Part shown: one piece after another, positions 4,705 through 22,097 of the stretch
How the letters are laid out: every line of letters starts with the position of its first letter
Position numbering within the stretch: position 1 is the stretch's first letter
From: an uncultured Bacteroidales bacterium
GTDB taxonomy: Bacteria > Bacteroidota > Bacteroidia > Bacteroidales > UBA932
Reading direction: 5' to 3'
Assembly: GCA_900316955.1 (NCBI GenBank)
Contig: ONEX01000001.1
Coordinates: 630 to 64,629 of the forward strand
Length of the DNA: 64,000 nucleotides
Notes under the pieces: model-generated
What the model saw: only the letters and a program-made list of their open reading frames with translations
What the model was told of the DNA's origin: nothing
Databases searched by the model: none
Made by a program: the position numbers and the translations under genes

Positions 4705-5637
4705 ATGGCTGAAGCACCCCAGACCATCGACCTCCAGCGGATCAAGGCACTGGCCCCTGTCATCGAAGAAATGAGCATCGACGACGACTTAGTCATCGGC
4801 GAAGTGAGCGGAAAGCGCGTAGAAAAGAACGAAGCTATCCTGCGGATGCTCCAATATCCCGTCCGCTTCGACGGGTTCATCATTTTCTATCTGAAAAAAG
4901 GACATTTCACGGTGGACGTGAACCTCAATTCTTATGAAGTACGGGAGAAATCCCTCATGATCCAGGCTCCAGGGAATATCGTAAAAGTGTCCCAATACGA
5001 TCAGGAACGGATCGGTGACATGGAAATGATCTTCGTCCTGATCTCCAAGGCTTTCATGTCCGGCATCCGGTTCGACATGCTGAAAGTCTTCCAGGACAGC
5101 CTGCGTCTGCTGGACAATCCGTGCATCACCCTGGACGAATTCCAGATGTCCCTGGCCAACGACTACTTCAACCTGGCCCGGAAAATCGTCGGCGCCCCTT
5201 TCACGAACAAAAAGGAAATCATCGGCTCTCTCCTGACTTCCCTCACCTATCTGTCCACCGACGTATGGGCGCAGCAGGTGGACGAAGCCCGGAAGAATTC
5301 CGATTCCCAACGCTCCGCCCGTCTGAACCAGATCTTCGAACGTTTCATCGCCCTGGTAAACGAGTACCACTGCTCCGAGCGAGGCATGGCCTTCTATGCG
5401 GACAAACTGTGCCTGACCCCTAAATACCTGTCCACGCTCATCAAGCAGGCCTCCGGCCGCTCCGCTCCCGACTGGATTGACGACTTCGTCATTCTGGAAG
5501 CGAAGAATCTATTGAAATACACCGACTTGGCCATCAAGGAAATCGTCTATAAGCTCCATTTCCCCAACCAGTCCGTCTTCTTCAAGTTCTTCAAAGCCCA
5601 TACCGGCCTCACTCCATCCGAGTACCGGAACGCCTGA
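4705..5637 (+). CDS. AraC family transcriptional regulator
   Basis: 310 aa; C-terminal FYADKLCLTPKYLS...IKEIVYKLHFPNQSVFFKFFKAHTGLTPSEYR double HTH. Confidence 0.95.
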   Translation: MAEAPQTIDLQRIKALAPVIEEMSIDDDLVIGEVSGKRVEKNEAILRMLQYPVRFDGFIIFYLKKGHFTVDVNLNSYEVREKSLMIQAPGNIVKVSQYDQERIGDMEMIFVLISKAFMSGIRFDMLKVFQDSLRLLDNPCITLDEFQMSLANDYFNLARKIVGAPFTNKKEIIGSLLTSLTYLSTDVWAQQVDEARKNSDSQRSARLNQIFERFIALVNEYHCSERGMAFYADKLCLTPKYLSTLIKQASGRSAPDWIDDFVILEAKNLLKYTDLAIKEIVYKLHFPNQSVFFKFFKAHTGLTPSEYRNA

Positions 5638-16985: not shown

Positions 16986-17038
16986 AAAACGCCCCGCATT
17001 GCTGCGAGGCGTTCGGAGCGGAAAACGAGACTTGAACT
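16986..17038 (-). repeat. att-like copy of tRNA-Gly 3' end plus terminator
   Basis: 17016-17038 matches 23525-23547 at 22/23 nt; hairpin AACGCCTCGCA-GCAA-TGCGGGGCGTT plus T-tract follows on minus strand. Confidence 0.88.
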
Positions 17039-17241
17039 ATTTCTTGTAATATATTGACAATCAATGATTTATGAGAAACCGAAAAGACATCAGGTGAAAC
17101 ATAGGTGAAACTTTCGTGGCTTTTCAGGACGTATAGGGAAAGCGACATAAAGAGACACAAGGCAAAGGAAAAGACGCCATGAACTGCCCCAAAATGTATT
17201 TATGCCGGAGGTCATGGACGATAGAAAGCCTGGTGCCAACG

Positions 17242-17685
17242 CTAGTCATCAACGTTGACCAGCTTGCCTTTTTTATCAAACTTGAGTTCCAGTCCGCTGG
17301 CAAGTTCAATCTCATGCCCCAAAGTCTCTTTGTCAATCTTGACGATGACCTGGCCCGGGAAACTCTGCCGGACATAATCGGCGATGGCGGCGGGAATCAG
17401 TGCGGCAGGTACGGCCGTCCGTTTGCAGTCGATTTTGTCCCACTGTCCCTTGCCGTCGAATTCAATCTCGGTACCGTCCTGAAACACGACCTCATAGGTT
17501 GTTTTGGTGAGTTCACTGTCTTTTTTGACATAGGAGACGGTATTCTCAGGAAAGTATTCCTTTATGAAGGACTGAGCCGCTTCGGGCAGTTTGTCGGTGG
17601 TCATAATGGCGTCTTTGCATGAAACGAGTAATGTGGCGGCGGACACGAGGGTCATGACCGCGAAAAGATTTGTAAACATTTTCAT
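17242..17685 (-). CDS. PepSY-like (BLIP-like) domain lipoprotein
   Basis: LLVSC lipobox; LPEAAQSFIKEYFP...YEVVFQDGTEIEFDGKGQW...IPAAIADYV...HEIELASGLELKFDKKG two-repeat pattern. Confidence 0.85.
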   Translation of the reverse strand: MKMFTNLFAVMTLVSAATLLVSCKDAIMTTDKLPEAAQSFIKEYFPENTVSYVKKDSELTKTTYEVVFQDGTEIEFDGKGQWDKIDCKRTAVPAALIPAAIADYVRQSFPGQVIVKIDKETLGHEIELASGLELKFDKKGKLVNVDD

Positions 17686-19364
17686 GATTTGGTTGCTTTA
17701 AGTGATTTGATTGATTTGGCAATATTGATCATATGGTCAGCGATACGCTCTGCATTGGAGGAGAGTTCCAGATACTGCGCCCCGACGGAAGGTGTACAGA
17801 TGCCTTTCTCCATACGGGCGATGTGCCCGTCTTCCATTTCTTTGGTGTAGTCGTCGATTTCCTCCTCTATGAAGTTGGCTTCGCGCAGGGACTCCAGGCT
17901 TTCATTCTGATACGCATCCATCGCATGGGCATACAACTGGTGCAGCAGCTTCTTCAACTGGCTGATTTCGTATTTGGCCTCGTCGGAGAACTGCTGGGAC
18001 GTATCGGCCAGAACGGTCGCATATTCGACGATGTTCTCGGCATAATCCCCGATCCGTTCCAGGTCCCGGATGCTGCGGTAAGTGCCGGAGAGGTACGTCC
18101 TGTCCTTTTCGCCCAGACCGCTCCGGCCGCTGAGCCGGACGACAAAACCAACCAGCTCGCGGTTGATGAAGTCCAACTGCCGTTCGTCCCGGTCGAAAAG
18201 GTTTTTATCGGCAAAGTCCAGCTGCACGGCCATATCCAGCGCGCGGTCCACGTTTTCCAGGGCGATATCGGCCATCCGCAGAATCTCGCGTTTGACCTGG
18301 GAAACGGCCACAGGAGGGGTCCGGAGCATATTCTCGTCCACATAACGGAGGGAGAACTCGCGATCCTTGGGGACGGTGCGTTCCGGGATCATCCGGATCA
18401 CCAGCGCGACCAGCGCGCCCGTCAGGGGCAGCATCACGGCCACCGTCACGACGTTGAAGAATGTATGGAACATCGCCAGCTGCACCTGGGGAGCCGAGGG
18501 GAACAGCCGCTCGAACAGGCCTCCGTAAGAGACATCGAACCACCCCAGGACCAGGGCTGCCAGCAGGAACAGGACCACGCCGGAGCAGTTGAACAGCAAG
18601 TGGATGAGGGCGGTGCGCTTAGCATTCGTTCCGCTGGTGACGCCCGCGATGACCGCGACCACGCAGGAGCCGATGTTGGAGCCCATCGTCAGGTAGATGC
18701 CCTGGTCGATGCCGATGAGCCCGGTCACCACCATCGCCAACGCGATGGAGGTCATCACGGAGGAACTCTGGATGATGGCCGTGAAGACAGCGCCCAGCAG
18801 GACGAGCAGGAGGGGATTTCCGATTCCGGCGAGGAATGTTTTGACGCCGTCCAGGGCGGCGAACTGTTCCATTGATCCGCTCATGAGTTCCAGGCCCACG
18901 AACAGAAGGCCGAAGCCGGCCAGGATGCCGCCCAGGGTCTTGGAACCGCTCTTTTTGGCAAAAATGCTCAGGAAGGCGCCCAGGCCGGCGAAGGCCGAGA
19001 AGATGACGCTCGTGGACAGGGAATTGCCCCCGAACATACCCAGGGCGACAATCTGCGCCGTCACTGTGGTACCGATGTTGGCGCCATAGATGATGGTCGC
19101 GGCCTGCGCCAGGGAGATGATACCGGCATTGACAAAGCCGATGGTCATGACCGTGGTGGCGCCGGAACTCTGGATGGCCGCCGTCCCCAGCGCGCCGATT
19201 CCGACACCCATCAGTTTGCTGTTGGAAGCTTTCGAAAAGAGCAGTTTCAGTTTTTCCGAGCTCGCCGCTTCTAGATTCGAGCTCATCATCTGACACGCAA
19301 TCAGGAATACACCGATTCCTGCAAGGAGTGTCAGCAAAGAGGTGATGATTGCTGTTAAATCCAT
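17682..19364 (-). CDS. Na+/Pi cotransporter family protein with PhoU domains
   Basis: Duplicated IQSSGATT / IQSSSVMT and GANIGTT / GSNIGS motifs; C-terminal DLERIGDYAENI / NAERIADHMINI. Confidence 0.95.
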   Translation of the reverse strand: MDLTAIITSLLTLLAGIGVFLIACQMMSSNLEAASSEKLKLLFSKASNSKLMGVGIGALGTAAIQSSGATTVMTIGFVNAGIISLAQAATIIYGANIGTTVTAQIVALGMFGGNSLSTSVIFSAFAGLGAFLSIFAKKSGSKTLGGILAGFGLLFVGLELMSGSMEQFAALDGVKTFLAGIGNPLLLVLLGAVFTAIIQSSSVMTSIALAMVVTGLIGIDQGIYLTMGSNIGSCVVAVIAGVTSGTNAKRTALIHLLFNCSGVVLFLLAALVLGWFDVSYGGLFERLFPSAPQVQLAMFHTFFNVVTVAVMLPLTGALVALVIRMIPERTVPKDREFSLRYVDENMLRTPPVAVSQVKREILRMADIALENVDRALDMAVQLDFADKNLFDRDERQLDFINRELVGFVVRLSGRSGLGEKDRTYLSGTYRSIRDLERIGDYAENIVEYATVLADTSQQFSDEAKYEISQLKKLLHQLYAHAMDAYQNESLESLREANFIEEEIDDYTKEMEDGHIARMEKGICTPSVGAQYLELSSNAERIADHMINIAKSIKSLKATKS

Positions 19365-19415
19365 ATAAGTTGTTTTGAAAGAATGACTTGAATCCTCCTG
19401 AAAGTAGGATTCAGT

Positions 19416-19700
19416 CTATAGCCGAAGCAGACACGCTTTCAGCCATTGCCTTTCAAAACAGAAATGGATGAGATGAAATGTGAGATTCTGAATGGATGCG
19501 GGCTTGATCTCCGGGGAAAAGGCATCGGTTGCCGTGAGAATCTTTTTCGGAATCCGTTGGGGAATACGAATGACGGCCTCCTCTTCCACATCGTCCACCT
19601 CTTCAAGACAGATATCCTGTCCCTGGGAATAACTGACAAAAGGAGCACTTTCCGGCAGCAAGGTCAGAAACAGCGCAAGGAAAAGTGTCAGAATCTTCAT
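19416..19700 (-). CDS. Small signal-peptide protein ending CLLRL (candidate leader peptide of the Na/Pi transporter)
   Basis: 94 aa; hydrophobic N-terminus, acidic linker, ...ERQWLKACLLRL*; 51 nt upstream of the transporter ATG. Confidence 0.7.
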   Translation of the reverse strand: MKILTLFLALFLTLLPESAPFVSYSQGQDICLEEVDDVEEEAVIRIPQRIPKKILTATDAFSPEIKPASIQNLTFHLIHFCFERQWLKACLLRL

Positions 19701-19787
19701 CTGCCAGAATCCACTGCAATTTTTATTCCGCAGATATTCCGGGAACGCCCAATACTTTTTTGCGCGTTTTTGCTATCTTTGCACTGC

Positions 19788-20192
19788 ATGAAACTCGTTG
19801 TACTCATATTATCCTTTCTACTCTCCTTCCTCTCCGGAGGAAGAACAGAGGTAGTTAATACGAGTTCACAGGATAATGGGCGGTACAGTGTATCCGAAAG
19901 TCAGTCAACAGAGAAGACTGCAGATTATACCCAAAACAGGGAGCTCTGCATAACGGCTGCGCAAGGATATACTTTTGCAGGAGGTGGCAATTCTAATTCT
20001 GTTTCGATCCGTGTCACCCAGTCCGGAAAACGGACCTCACCTCAGGTACGCTCCACTTTTCGAATCATCAAAGGTGGAAAAATCATTGATAACAACCATT
20101 TACATCCATTCCTCGCCCAATCAATCGTGCATCAGGCGGGAATGTATATTTCTGATAGATACCTGTTTTCCATTTGCAGCCTCCGGCTATAG
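19788..20192 (+). CDS. Small signal-peptide protein ending CSLRL (candidate leader peptide of the Ca/Na antiporter)
   Basis: 134 aa from MKLVVLILSFLLSFLSGG; TATCTTTG -7 box ends 6 nt before ATG; ...SDRYLFSICSLRL*. Confidence 0.7.
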   Translation: MKLVVLILSFLLSFLSGGRTEVVNTSSQDNGRYSVSESQSTEKTADYTQNRELCITAAQGYTFAGGGNSNSVSIRVTQSGKRTSPQVRSTFRIIKGGKIIDNNHLHPFLAQSIVHQAGMYISDRYLFSICSLRL

Positions 20193-20250
20193 CAGATTGT
20201 CAATGCTCTTTTGACAATCGGACAGTTATCTAATAATCAGAACAACCATC

Positions 20251-21201
20251 ATGACAATTATCTGGCTGCTGGTCGGCCTGGGGCTTATCGTCCTGGGTGC
20301 TGACTGGCTTGTTGAAGGCGCCTCCTCCATTGCCCGGAGGGCCGGCGTCAGTGAATTTGTAATCGGCCTTACTATCGTGGGCTTCGGAACTTCGTGTCCG
20401 GAACTGGTGGTAAGCCTCACGGGCGCATTGGAGGGGAATGCCGATATCGCCGTCGGCAATGTTATCGGCTCCAATATCTTCAATGTCCTGTTTATATTGG
20501 GCCTTACGGCGTTGTTATGCCCGGTCACTATGACTCAGGACAACCGCAAGAAGGATATCCCGCTTACGCTTGCTGTTACGGTTCTCTATCTGGCGATAGG
20601 CCTGAACCGCACACTTTGGGGCATCGGCCAGGCCGACAGTCTTTCCCGCTGGGAAGGTGCGCTGCTCCTTGCCATTTTCGCTGGCTATATCGTCCATTCA
20701 TTCGTAACCGGCAAACCCGCAGAAGATGCAGCTGAATCCAAGCCCCGGAAACTGTGGATAGCCATTCTCATGGTCCTTGCCGGGCTCTCCGGACTGATAT
20801 TCGGAGGCAATCTGTTCGTGAATTCTGCCACGAATCTAGCTCGGATGCTCGGTGTCAGCGACAAGTTCATCGCCGTTACGATCCTGGCCGGAGGCACATC
20901 ACTCCCGGAACTGGCCACCAGTCTCGTGGCCGCCCTCAAAGGACGGGACCAACTGGCCCTCGGCAACATCCTTGGTTCTAACGTCTTCAATATCCTCCTG
21001 ATTCTGGGCTCATCTGCCCTCATTACACCGCTTTCCTTAGCATCTGTGACATATGTCGATGCTTTGGTTCTCACGCTAAGTATGATCCTGTTGCTCCTTT
21101 GGGCTTACACAGGCCGAAGAGAGCGGATCGACCGCTGGGAAGGCGCACTGATGCTCCTGGTTTTCGGAGCCTATTACACTTATTTGTTTATCAACTTATA
21201 A
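20251..21201 (+). CDS. Calcium/sodium antiporter (CaCA, YrbG-like)
   Basis: Duplicated alpha motifs GFGTSCPEL...GNVIGSNIFN and AGGTSLPEL...GNILGSNVFN. Confidence 0.95.
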   Translation: MTIIWLLVGLGLIVLGADWLVEGASSIARRAGVSEFVIGLTIVGFGTSCPELVVSLTGALEGNADIAVGNVIGSNIFNVLFILGLTALLCPVTMTQDNRKKDIPLTLAVTVLYLAIGLNRTLWGIGQADSLSRWEGALLLAIFAGYIVHSFVTGKPAEDAAESKPRKLWIAILMVLAGLSGLIFGGNLFVNSATNLARMLGVSDKFIAVTILAGGTSLPELATSLVAALKGRDQLALGNILGSNVFNILLILGSSALITPLSLASVTYVDALVLTLSMILLLLWAYTGRRERIDRWEGALMLLVFGAYYTYLFINL

Positions 21202-21203
21202 TC

Positions 21204-21642
21204 ATGCAAATCAAATTCAAAAAAGGTTCACACCAAAAAGGACCTAATCATATCTGCCATTGTACTGGCCGCCGGCATCGGCCTCTATTTCATCAACGCC
21301 GGACTCGGAATTCTCCTCGCCTTCTGCGGCATCCTGATGCTGCTGTTCTTTAAAGGCGGCTATAAACGCGAAGGAGAAGACATCGTCCTTCAGAAGAAAG
21401 CCCTCGATGTGGCACACTCCTGCAGGGACTCCCTCAAAGGCTTCCTGGAGGGCAAAGATGTCGAACCCGATGTGAATACCAGCATCAACGGTGGCATCAT
21501 CCGCCTGGAAGTTTACTACAATGCGGCCGCGCCCGTCGCCTACGCTCAACTCTTCGACTTCTCCAATTACACCTATGAGCCCGCTACGGGCATCGTTGAA
21601 TTACGCGGCCCGAAAGCCGATCAAATCATCACTAAACTATGA
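21204..21642 (+). pseudogene. Frameshifted membrane protein, paralog of the next gene
   Basis: ATG at 21204 is out of frame with the 21337-21642 ORF; removing one A from the A6 run at 21219-21224 gives MQIKFKKVHTKKDLIISAIVLAAGIG... Confidence 0.6.
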
Positions 21643-22097
21643 AAAACCCGCAGGTAAAGAAAACGTTCCTGCCGCAGGACATCGCCGTCCTGGCGGTTAT
21701 CTTTGCGGCAGGAGCCGCCTGCTTCCTTCTGGGAGAAGGATGGGGCGGTCTGGGAGTCGTGATTCTGCTTTGTGGCGCGATGATGCTTCCTTTCTACCGA
21801 CACGGTTATCGGCTTGAAGACCGCAAAGGCCTCTATCGGCTGCAGGAAATCTCTCTTCCCCGGGACAACAAAGCCGAGATCCTTGCCTATTTGGAAGGAA
21901 AACTGGAAACCCTCGACCTGCATTCCCCGCAGCCGGGCGGCGCCCTTGTGGAAGTCTACTATCGTAAAGATGAAGACCTACGGCTTGCCCGATTCTTTGA
22001 TTATGCCGACTTCTCGCAGGGAATCGAGTATCCTCTCCATGAAGTCACTCGGGAGCAGGTCTCCACGCTGGAATCCTTTGCAACAGACAAGAAATGA
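21639..22097 (+). CDS. Hypothetical membrane protein (two N-terminal TM)
   Basis: 152 aa; ATGA overlap; resembles the upstream gene (GY..E, EVYY, LFD(Y/F) motifs). Confidence 0.75.
   Translation: MKNPQVKKTFLPQDIAVLAVIFAAGAACFLLGEGWGGLGVVILLCGAMMLPFYRHGYRLEDRKGLYRLQEISLPRDNKAEILAYLEGKLETLDLHSPQPGGALVEVYYRKDEDLRLARFFDYADFSQGIEYPLHEVTREQVSTLESFATDKK

Follow-up and report, generated by a model that had tools for sequence, protein, structure and literature searches.

In a 64,000-nucleotide stretch of DNA from an uncultured rumen Bacteroidales bacterium (contig ONEX01000001.1; hereafter, the window), two small open reading frames (ORFs), called here F1 and F2, stand as a divergent pair between the gene of a Na/Pi cotransporter with a PhoU domain and the gene of a Na/Ca exchanger. 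We found that a long-range mRNA helix, P1, connects the tail codons of each small ORF with the initiation region of the transporter gene lying downstream; this helix is new in this analysis and is conserved in both leaders. Considered with the conservation of the two peptides, it suggests that each unit is a first-cistron leader ORF combined with an mRNA switch gating the translation of the downstream cation-transporter gene, an explanation that we hold, on balance, to be probable. The transporter would then probably be translatable only while a ribosome finishes the small frame.

The two ORFs had been singled out by an earlier note on this DNA, which described leader peptides with identical last three codons, each followed by a hairpin and, at a short distance, by an ion transporter gene. 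The ORFs, their endings, the hairpins and the stop-to-ATG spacing were all found in the sequence (Table 1). Indeed, F1 ends with TGT CTG CTT CGG CTA TAG (ACLLRL*) and F2 with TGC AGC CTC CGG CTA TAG (ICSLRL*), and the transporter ATG is reached 51 nucleotides (nt) after the stop codon of F1 and 58 nt after that of F2. Among the 1435 stop-to-stop frames of at least 20 amino acids (aa) in the window, only two, i.e., F1 and F2, show the C-x-L-R-L ending, and CGGCTATAG is present at two places in the window, which are the ends of the same two ORFs. The proposed identities of the transporters (Na/Pi and Ca/Na) agree with their Pfam domains, Na_Pi_cotrans and PhoU for the first, Na_Ca_ex for the second.

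Homologue clusters of both peptides were searched in a collection of 5.8 billion proteins. We obtained 102 clusters for F1, most of 94–97 aa, and 99 for F2, mostly of constant length, and none of them is annotated. By using the F2 profile with HMMER on 1.84 billion cluster representatives, the second family grew into a superfamily that counts 126 clusters at 50% identity. Almost all of its members measure 120–140 aa and end at the same point after R-Y-[IL]-[YFH]-x-[IL]-[CR]-x-[LI]-[RL]-[LI], and the residues C, AQ, F.G, GRR, K.GK.ID and SG are kept throughout. The carriers of F1 and F2 are all uncultured, the homologue clusters come from rumen Bacteroidales, and the relatives of the source genome include Candidatus Cryptobacteroides. 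Neither F1 nor F2 has a significant match in Pfam, NCBIfam or the PDB sequences (nothing below E = 0.03, with scores far below the curated cut-offs).

In both families, with ~100 homologue clusters each, the best-conserved part is the tail, which reads CFERQWLxxCxLRL then TAG in F1, and S(E/D)RYLFSICxLRL then TAG in F2. The shared C-x-L-R-L ending noticed earlier is therefore confirmed, but the true shared motif is longer (ER-x5-C-x-LRL) and ends exactly at the stop codon. Both tails are devoid of proline and do not match a C-terminal R-A/G-P-P/G, so that the motif is, as had been stated, unlike RAPP. The remainder of F1 comprises a hydrophobic N-terminus (MKILTLFLALFLTLLPE), an acidic patch (QDxCxEEVDDVEEEAVIR) and a variable linker, and that of F2 a hydrophobic N-terminus (MKLVVLILSFLLSFLSGG), a variable stretch and a conserved basic region rich in Ser, Arg and Lys. 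The signal-like segment attributed to each ORF is recovered at the family level as a predicted hydrophobic, targeting-like N-terminus, with 13–15 hydrophobic residues after Met-Lys that AlphaFold2 models as a helix; no obvious signal cleavage site is visible in F1, and a possible one lies between SGG and R in F2. The spacer from the targeting segment to the tail is ~75 aa in F1 and ~115 aa in F2. Apart from this common design, the ORFs had been considered dissimilar, a view that we had to abandon. Indeed, hhalign aligns the N-termini of the F1 and F2 profiles with E = 2e-5 (1.3e-6 with a deeper F2 profile). It aligns the N-termini only and not the tails, and thus does not demonstrate a common descent of the tails.

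All along F1 and F2, conserved residues are encoded by several synonymous codons. The ratio of nonsynonymous to synonymous substitutions (dN/dS), which is crude when taken by region since dS is ~1 and thus saturated, was 0.09 for the F1 N-terminus including its hydrophobic stretch, 0.20 for the acidic patch, 0.69 for the linker and 0.28 for the tail. In F2, it was 0.19 for the N-terminus, again including the hydrophobic stretch, 0.45 for the variable part, 0.14 for the core, 0.50 for the pre-tail and 0.15 for the tail. Synonymous variation at conserved residues, together with these low ratios, shows that F1 and F2 are translated and that purifying selection acts on their N-termini and tails. 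The linker of F1, described as variable in the earlier note, is indeed nearly neutral and free in sequence while being fixed in length, as the whole ORF stays at 94–96 aa.

The stop codon is conserved as well. TAG closes 22 of 23 distinct F1 and 47 of 47 distinct F2 DNA sequences (69/70 together), against 63 of 292 (21.6%) among the long ORFs (≥250 aa) of these loci, and it is found in three of four distant F2 relatives. As synonymous sites are saturated and TAG is nearly invariant, inheritance alone does not account for the conservation of the stop. The tail is conserved at the amino-acid level. Six codons are in use for its final Leu and four or five (CTN/TTR) for the Leu at -3; for the penultimate Arg, CGG prevails, and AGG, CGC, CGT and CGA occur as well; and the residue between Cys and Leu is free in both families, in nucleotides as in amino acids. 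The codon of the tail Cys is TGT or TGC in F1 and TGC in 47 of 47 F2 sequences. Distant F2 relatives end with a hydrophobic-(R/L)-hydrophobic triplet (LLI, IRI, LRI) written with unrelated codons. The nucleotide identity of CGG CTA TAG in the two ORFs, which the earlier note pointed out, is present, but RNA pairing can explain part of it. Peptide and RNA constraints are both at work, and they are not fully separable for the last three codons.

The structure of the F1 leader, from the tail codons to the transporter start, was predicted with RNAfold. Its minimum free energy is -42.3 kcal/mol, against -23.6 ± 3.1 for shuffled sequences (z = -6.1), and its fold is a three-way junction closed by helix P1. 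The 5' arm of P1 runs through the codons TGT TTT GAA AGG and pairs with the strand CTTTCAAAAC. Across 19 distinct leaders, 95.8% of the cells are paired in this register and 39–61% in slid registers. Compensatory changes are seen at three pairs of P1, with matching changes of both arms in two leaders: L019, where a U-A pair becomes A-U, and L024, where an A-U pair becomes U-A and a G-C pair becomes U-A. The latter is also the leader whose tail reads FVV in place of FER and which carries the sole TAA stop. None of 500 column shuffles reached the observed value of the F1 junction on any of five measures. Furthermore, the 5'-arm codons are without synonymous variation (TGT 18/18, TTT 21/21, GAA 21/21, AGR 21/22) while their neighbours vary freely; these frozen sites point to an RNA-level constraint added to the coding one. 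Inside the junction, the post-stop hairpin P3 has 78.6% of its cells paired, and six of its seven pairs change on both sides across the 19 leaders. A further helix, P2, is a candidate pairing only. Indeed, 93% of its cells can pair, without covariation, and both of its sides are conserved anyway; it may nevertheless be compatible with the conservation of CGG and UAG. The post-stop hairpins of the earlier note are thus present and fold as described, but they form only an inner arm of a larger junction, of which P1 is the more telling helix.

The F2 leader has the same architecture, i.e., a P1 helix closing a junction that contains the remaining tail codons, the stop and a post-stop hairpin. Here, UUCUGA-N-AGAUA-CUGU pairs with ACAG-UAUCU...UCAGAA. 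By pair counts, 79% of P1 is paired, against 37–42% when the partners are slid, and the helix is predicted in 17 of 21 relatives with a short spacer. A paired change is also observed, GAU/AUC in the window being GAA/UUC in four other loci (L012, L067, L070, L075). In P2, the helix joining leader positions 34–36 with 51–53 is paired at 98% in 17 leaders, and its UGC:GCA pairing would favour both the TGC codon and the G of TAG. Distant F2 relatives show analogous long-range pairings (AGAUAC with GUAUC, AUUUGC with GCAAAU). A covariance model built on the F1 leader recovers all the F1 leaders tested, including two outside the seed; it does not detect the F2 leaders, which argues against an RNA core common to both. 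The F1 and F2 leader RNAs thus have a common architecture with no detectable sequence homology.

Table 1. Features of the F1 and F2 units in the window
Feature	Positions	Strand	Description	Basis
F1 leader ORF	19416..19700	minus	94 aa	ORF list
F2 leader ORF	19788..20192	plus	134 aa	ORF list
Na/Pi cotransporter with PhoU domain	17682..19364	minus	560 aa, downstream of F1	Pfam PF02690 2.3e-47, PF01895 2.3e-20
Na/Ca exchanger (Na_Ca_ex)	20251..21201	plus	316 aa, downstream of F2	Pfam PF01699 4.3e-70
Two genes of proteins with two transmembrane helices (2-TM)	21204-22097	plus	~145 and ~152-155 aa, after the Na/Ca exchanger
F1 P1, 5' arm	19450..19459	minus	GUUUUGAAAG, within tail codons Cys-Phe-Glu-Arg	RNAfold, RNAalifold, pair counts
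F1 P1, 3' arm	19372..19381	minus	CUUUCAAAAC, 8-17 nt upstream of the cotransporter ATG at 19364
F1 P2 (candidate)	19416..19448	minus	Gln-Trp-Leu codons (CARUGGCU) with Arg-Leu-stop codons CGGCUNUAG
F1 P3 hairpin	19389..19413	minus	UGAAUCCU ... AGGAUUCA, 2 nt after the stop; extended by RNAfold to ~19385-19416	RNAfold
F2 P1, 5' arm	20150..20168	plus	UUCUGAUAGAUA-CUGUUU, tail codons Ser-Asp-Arg-Tyr-Leu-Phe	RNAfold
F2 P1, 3' arm	20220..20242	plus	GGACAG-UAUCUA....UCAGAA, 9-31 nt upstream of the exchanger ATG at 20251
F2 P2	20175..20194	plus	Cys codon UGC with G of UAG + CA, enclosing hairpin AGCC-UCC-GGCU
F2 P3 hairpin	20195..20219	plus	GAUUGUCAA ... UUGACAAUC, 2 nt after the stop
F2 promoter, Bacteroides-type -7 box	19774..19781	plus	TATCTTTG, ends 6 nt before the F2 start
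F1 upstream box	19717..19725	minus	TAAAAATTG (part of GGAATAAnAATTGCAG), 17-25 nt before the F1 start, conserved in most F1 upstream regions

How such a leader could control the next gene is suggested by the initiation mode of these bacteria. Ribosomes of Bacteroidia work without Shine-Dalgarno pairing, and initiation is tuned by secondary structure and by upstream adenines (PMC6847099). The A-rich stretch located ~10–30 nt upstream of the transporter start codon is taken up in the 3' arm of P1. As P1 buries this stretch and initiation is blind to Shine-Dalgarno sequences, the transporter start would be poorly accessible when P1 is closed, i.e., as long as no ribosome translates the leader. 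A ribosome on the last ~14 leader codons would have to melt P1, and the transporter would then be translated in step with the leader; if P1 is opened only by leader-translating ribosomes, this translational coupling would be obligatory. The following steps are less certain. The invariant C-x-L-R-L tail and the near-invariant UAG might slow termination, and a ribosome dwelling on the stop, or a second one queued on the 5' arm of P1, might keep the helix open longer. The length of the pause might be set by export or membrane insertion of the N-terminus, or by an ion sensed by the conserved Cys or acidic residues, which would follow the logic of SecM, VemP, MifM and CruR.

Several observations weigh against this explanation. 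By our own geometric estimate, a ribosome on the stop codon covers ~-18 to +15 nt, and neither arm of P1, at -41 to -32 and at ~+36 to +45, lies within this footprint; the idea that a pause keeps P1 open thus rests on steric or queueing arguments. Both arms of P1 are nearly invariant, so that its covariation is carried by a few sequences, and the P2 pairing alone could explain part of the conservation of CGG and UAG. Repeat insertions of 40–80 nt are tolerated in the F2 spacer, and P1 is not predicted in several of the loci concerned. In the rumen RNA runs, used as assembled contigs only and covering both ORFs, the depth of F2 and that of the exchanger differ ~10-fold, an unreliable figure that could nonetheless mean a separate transcript. 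Lastly, F2 is conserved over its whole length, shows lipoprotein-like signal ends in some members and is kept where Na_Ca_ex has been deleted, so that it may also, or instead, act as a mature protein.

This last point leads to the explanation that F1 and F2 are ordinary small proteins, exported or membrane-anchored, which act in trans as partners of the transporters or of the 2-TM pair, their tail being a binding helix and P1 an ordinary coupling of neighbouring cistrons. We consider it possible, with more doubt than confidence. The F2 superfamily is what one would expect of it, with 126 clusters at a constant length of ~130 aa, conserved residues throughout, a core dN/dS of 0.14, and LxxC lipobox-like ends of the signal segment in some members; moreover, where Na_Ca_ex is deleted or absent, F2 persists and directly precedes the 145-aa gene. 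The AlphaFold2 predictions can be read both ways. They contain a tail helix (residues 122–133), but the only other elements are the N-terminal helix and a small hairpin at 92–101, and no globular fold of F2 is predicted even with a 100-sequence alignment (predicted local distance difference test score, pLDDT, 63 and predicted template modelling score, pTM, 0.19; 47 and 0.21, respectively, with 31 sequences). The lack of any match to a Pfam, NCBIfam or PDB family and the almost neutral F1 linker of fixed length also weigh against a mature protein of this kind. Finally, it leaves unexplained the near-invariant UAG and the exact, fixed C-terminal end, and it does not tell why the same tail is carried by two otherwise unrelated bodies.

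That the tail is a termination-pausing peptide is plausible, and we put it forward tentatively, by analogy and with more doubt than confidence. In its full form, which is a similarly speculative proposal, F1 and F2 would represent arrest peptides of a new class, in which an (aromatic)-x(3-4)-C-x-L-R-L tail blocks termination dependent on release factor 1 (RF1) at UAG. The wait, and hence the time during which the initiation region of the Na+-coupled transporter is unmasked, would be set by whether the N-terminal segment has been exported or inserted, or by an ion that the conserved Cys or acidic residues sense. The fixed length of the neutral F1 linker, the exact C-terminal end and the UAG preference would all fit this proposal, for which Bacteroidota upstream ORFs stalling with their stop codon in the A site offer a precedent. 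It is disfavoured by its targets, as these are not secretion genes, by the estimated ribosome footprint, which leaves both P1 arms uncovered, and by F2, which looks like more than a leader.

An improbable explanation is that the three-way junction is a ligand- or ion-sensing, riboswitch-like RNA that controls the transporter start and overlaps the ORF end incidentally. The unusually stable and conserved structure, the frozen synonymous sites of the P1 arm, the covariation in P1 and P3, and the downstream ion transporters, which are common riboswitch targets, would agree with it. However, a scan of positions 17000–22000 with Rfam 15 at E <= 10 returned only two snoRNA models (E 3 and 9.9), far below their gathering scores, and the failure of the F1 covariance model on F2 leaders leaves no shared RNA core. 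In addition, there is no conservation of the nucleotides in junction and loops, P3 is free to vary, a repeat element can take its place in F2, and the peptide-level conservation of tail and N-terminus is left without explanation. Transcription attenuation by the post-stop hairpins was dropped, as a scan of positions 19000–20600 for intrinsic terminators found none. As for a coincidence between two unrelated or spurious ORFs, which the low GC content of the region (0.44–0.50, against 0.55–0.64 in the flanking genes) and the lack of known family could have suggested, it is refuted by ~100 homologue clusters each with conserved length, N-terminus and tail, by purifying selection on both ORFs, and by the same downstream gene following each ORF in many contexts; the F1/F2 observation is real and beyond chance, and the comparative evidence is decisive on this point.

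The known nascent peptides that join a regulatory role to an N-terminal targeting signal act, almost without exception, on the secretion machinery itself, as do SecM, VemP, MifM and the Bacteroidota NSP/NAP-stop peptides; CruR and CutF hint at the same logic in metal homeostasis. Like SecM-secA, VemP-secDF2 and MifM-yidC2, the F1 and F2 units combine a predicted N-terminal targeting segment, a conserved C-terminal peptide, probable co-transcription with the target and an mRNA helix that would hide an initiation region, and the aromatic/Arg spacing of the F1 tail (F..xW L..C.LRL) recalls the SecM motif FxxxxWIxxxxGIRAGP. These three systems, however, arrest in elongation before the stop, with the ribosome on the inhibitory stem, and regulate Sec/YidC machinery. 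The F1 and F2 motif extends up to the stop, both arms of P1 fall outside the estimated footprint of a ribosome placed there, no export gene is targeted, and there is no Shine-Dalgarno sequence to unmask. Translational coupling by long-range mRNA pairing is classical, with the phage MS2 coat-replicase pair and ermC-type leader control as examples. As in the model favoured here for F1 and F2, ribosomes of the upstream frame melt a helix that blocks downstream initiation; the differences are the dedicated and conserved export-type small ORF, the invariant tail and stop, and the organisms, whose initiation is not driven by Shine-Dalgarno sequences.

By analogy, the nearest described systems appear to be the Bacteroidota upstream ORFs of secA and secDF that end in NSP-stop, NAP-stop or DGMK-stop, whose stop codon was located in the ribosomal A site by toeprinting (PMC10987492). 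They belong to the same phylum and are likewise small upstream ORFs with an N-terminal signal or transmembrane segment (predicted, in F1 and F2), a spacer of more than 30 aa and an extreme C-terminal motif. The last residue of their motifs is Pro or Lys, and the downstream gene is secA or secDF, whereas F1 and F2 combine C-x-L-R-L and UAG with Na+-coupled ion transporters. With the monitoring substrates as delimited in the same work by four traits, F1 and F2 appear to share three, among which an unannotated, directly upstream and co-oriented ORF and a conserved C-terminal sequence beyond a spacer of more than 30 aa. The downstream genes are not Sec or YidC components but Na_Pi_cotrans+PhoU and Na_Ca_ex, and thus F1 and F2 should not be filed as monitoring substrates, even though they may work alike. 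Among systems with a non-secretion target, the nearest analogue seems to be CruR (DUF2946), the first gene of the bfrG copper operon in Bordetella pertussis (PMC9426467). CruR, too, heads a transporter operon, has conserved Cys residues and a conserved C-terminal motif, and serves ion or metal homeostasis rather than secretion. It differs by its RAPP motif, its CXXC copper sensor and its use of Rho-dependent termination, where F1 and F2 have no RAPP and no DUF2946 match and a structure that points to control of translation initiation. As their tails are proline-free, F1 and F2 fall outside the RAPP class (ApdA, ApcA, ApdP, CruR).

If the gating proposal is true, such switches would gain in sequence repertoire as well as in physiological reach, with a proline-free and stop-linked motif acting on Na/Pi and Na/Ca transporters. 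In the arrest-peptide form, F1 and F2 would constitute a force- or ion-sensing translational switch for ion homeostasis, rather than for the secretion machinery, in bacteria without Shine-Dalgarno initiation. The gating would also reveal the way in which an internal cistron is turned on in these Bacteroidia, where the accessibility of the A-rich initiation region is the sole apparent handle. Even in a minimal form, i.e., obligatory coupling through a conserved three-way junction, F1 and F2 would provide two clean examples with natural compensatory mutants. Finally, they would bring to the cation-transport operons of Bacteroidales a protein superfamily that has no annotation and counts at least 126 clusters.

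The genomic context was established on the window and on fetched loci of relatives. The co-orientation and tight spacing of each small ORF with a cation transporter gene, as claimed for the window, are supported by these loci. The Na/Pi cotransporter lies directly downstream of F1 wherever the downstream gene is readable, with or without F2 nearby, and its ATG is 50–53 nt away wherever the start is cleanly called. F2 lies 55–135 nt before Na_Ca_ex or before the 145-aa gene. Its operon consists of F2, Na_Ca_ex and the two paralogous 2-TM proteins (~145 and ~155 aa), to which a Na/H exchanger-TrkA_C gene is sometimes added; in ~10 loci that lack the Na/Ca exchanger gene or keep only a remnant of it, the 145-aa gene comes directly after F2. 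The twin divergent layout of the window is not general. Indeed, most F1 loci have no F2 nearby, and the two ORFs are adjacent and divergent in only seven fetched loci. F1 and F2 are thus independent modules, whose divergent pairing is incidental.

The F2 promoter box matches the Bacteroides -7 consensus TAnnTTTG (PMC4747536), which 36 of 41 distinct upstream sequences carry in the same place. Upstream of F1, a TAAnAATTGCAG-like box lies 13–25 nt before the start; it is not an exact match to TAnnTTTG and may be a variant -7 promoter box. No promoter or terminator consensus was found in the leader-to-transporter spacers. The presence of a promoter-like box before each leader, and of none in the spacers, argues that the leaders are first cistrons. 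Given the -7 box ending 6 nt before its start, the F2 mRNA would have little or no 5' leader; GTG, unusual for leaderless translation, is nevertheless the start codon of many F2 relatives.

The region between the two promoters is variable. A strain-level breakpoint lies at ~19755–19766 (L036–L040), and metagenome contigs carrying a 99–100% identical F2 have another upstream sequence (...AAAGAGAGCAGTAGAGTTGAATCGCCGGTG) where F1 stands in the window. The same alternative junction, near 19766, is found in RNA contigs, together with 1-nt length variants in the T-run at 19755–19758. Breaks of RNA contigs at 20192 and 19766 were considered as transcript ends and rejected, since they coincide with the repeat insertion site and with the rearrangement breakpoint, respectively. 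The repeat itself is a palindrome of ~45–80 nt, placed directly after TAG CAG in many F2 loci (e.g., L018, L041, L046, L058, L066, L076, L088, and also L011), where it replaces the P3 hairpin. Its sequence, AGATTCTTCGTCGGCC..GGCCTCCTCAGAATGACA....TGTCATTCTGAACGAAGTGAAGAATCT, looks like that of a miniature mobile element or of a repetitive extragenic palindrome (REP)-like element, and similar copies occur in the window near 5486, 53010 and 56005.

The earlier note had proposed a Bacteroidota family. No wider one was found beyond F1 and F2, by searches of low power. A regular expression for the tail, run over 97 fetched loci plus the window (98 sources, 541 kb), returned F1, F2 and one chance match, and a chimeric profile (N-terminus plus tail) run against the 5.8 billion proteins returned only F1 fragments, a weak negative since ~13 residues are too short a motif to become significant among so many proteins.

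The two paralogous proteins of ~145 and ~155 aa, which have two N-terminal transmembrane helices and a soluble domain, always follow F2 and Na_Ca_ex (e.g., window 21204–22097; L008 6425–7326; L104 795–1693; L012 2517–5001), and have no significant match in Pfam, NCBIfam or PDB. Together, the genes of the F2 operon look like an uncharacterised cation-homeostasis module. In the window, the 145-aa gene (21204–21642) is frameshifted at ~21213–21219, in the A-run of ATGCAAATCAAATTCAAAAAAGG; the protein starts with MEIKFKKVHT... in relatives, whereas in the window the reading frame changes between MQIKFKK and KKVHTKKDL.... At 21219, the RNA contigs of three rumen runs are shorter by one base. The frameshift is either an assembly error or a variation in length of the poly-A tract. 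On the F1 side, a gene for a PepSY-like protein (PF11396, 1.2e-29; 17242–17685, minus strand) directly follows the Na/Pi cotransporter, as it does in L005 and L006, and thus probably belongs to the F1 operon. Three contigs with Bacteroidales-typical F1 leaders (L018, L025 and L033) are binned in metagenome-assembled genomes of Treponema, Lachnospiraceae and Clostridia, labels that most likely reflect the mis-binning of short contigs.

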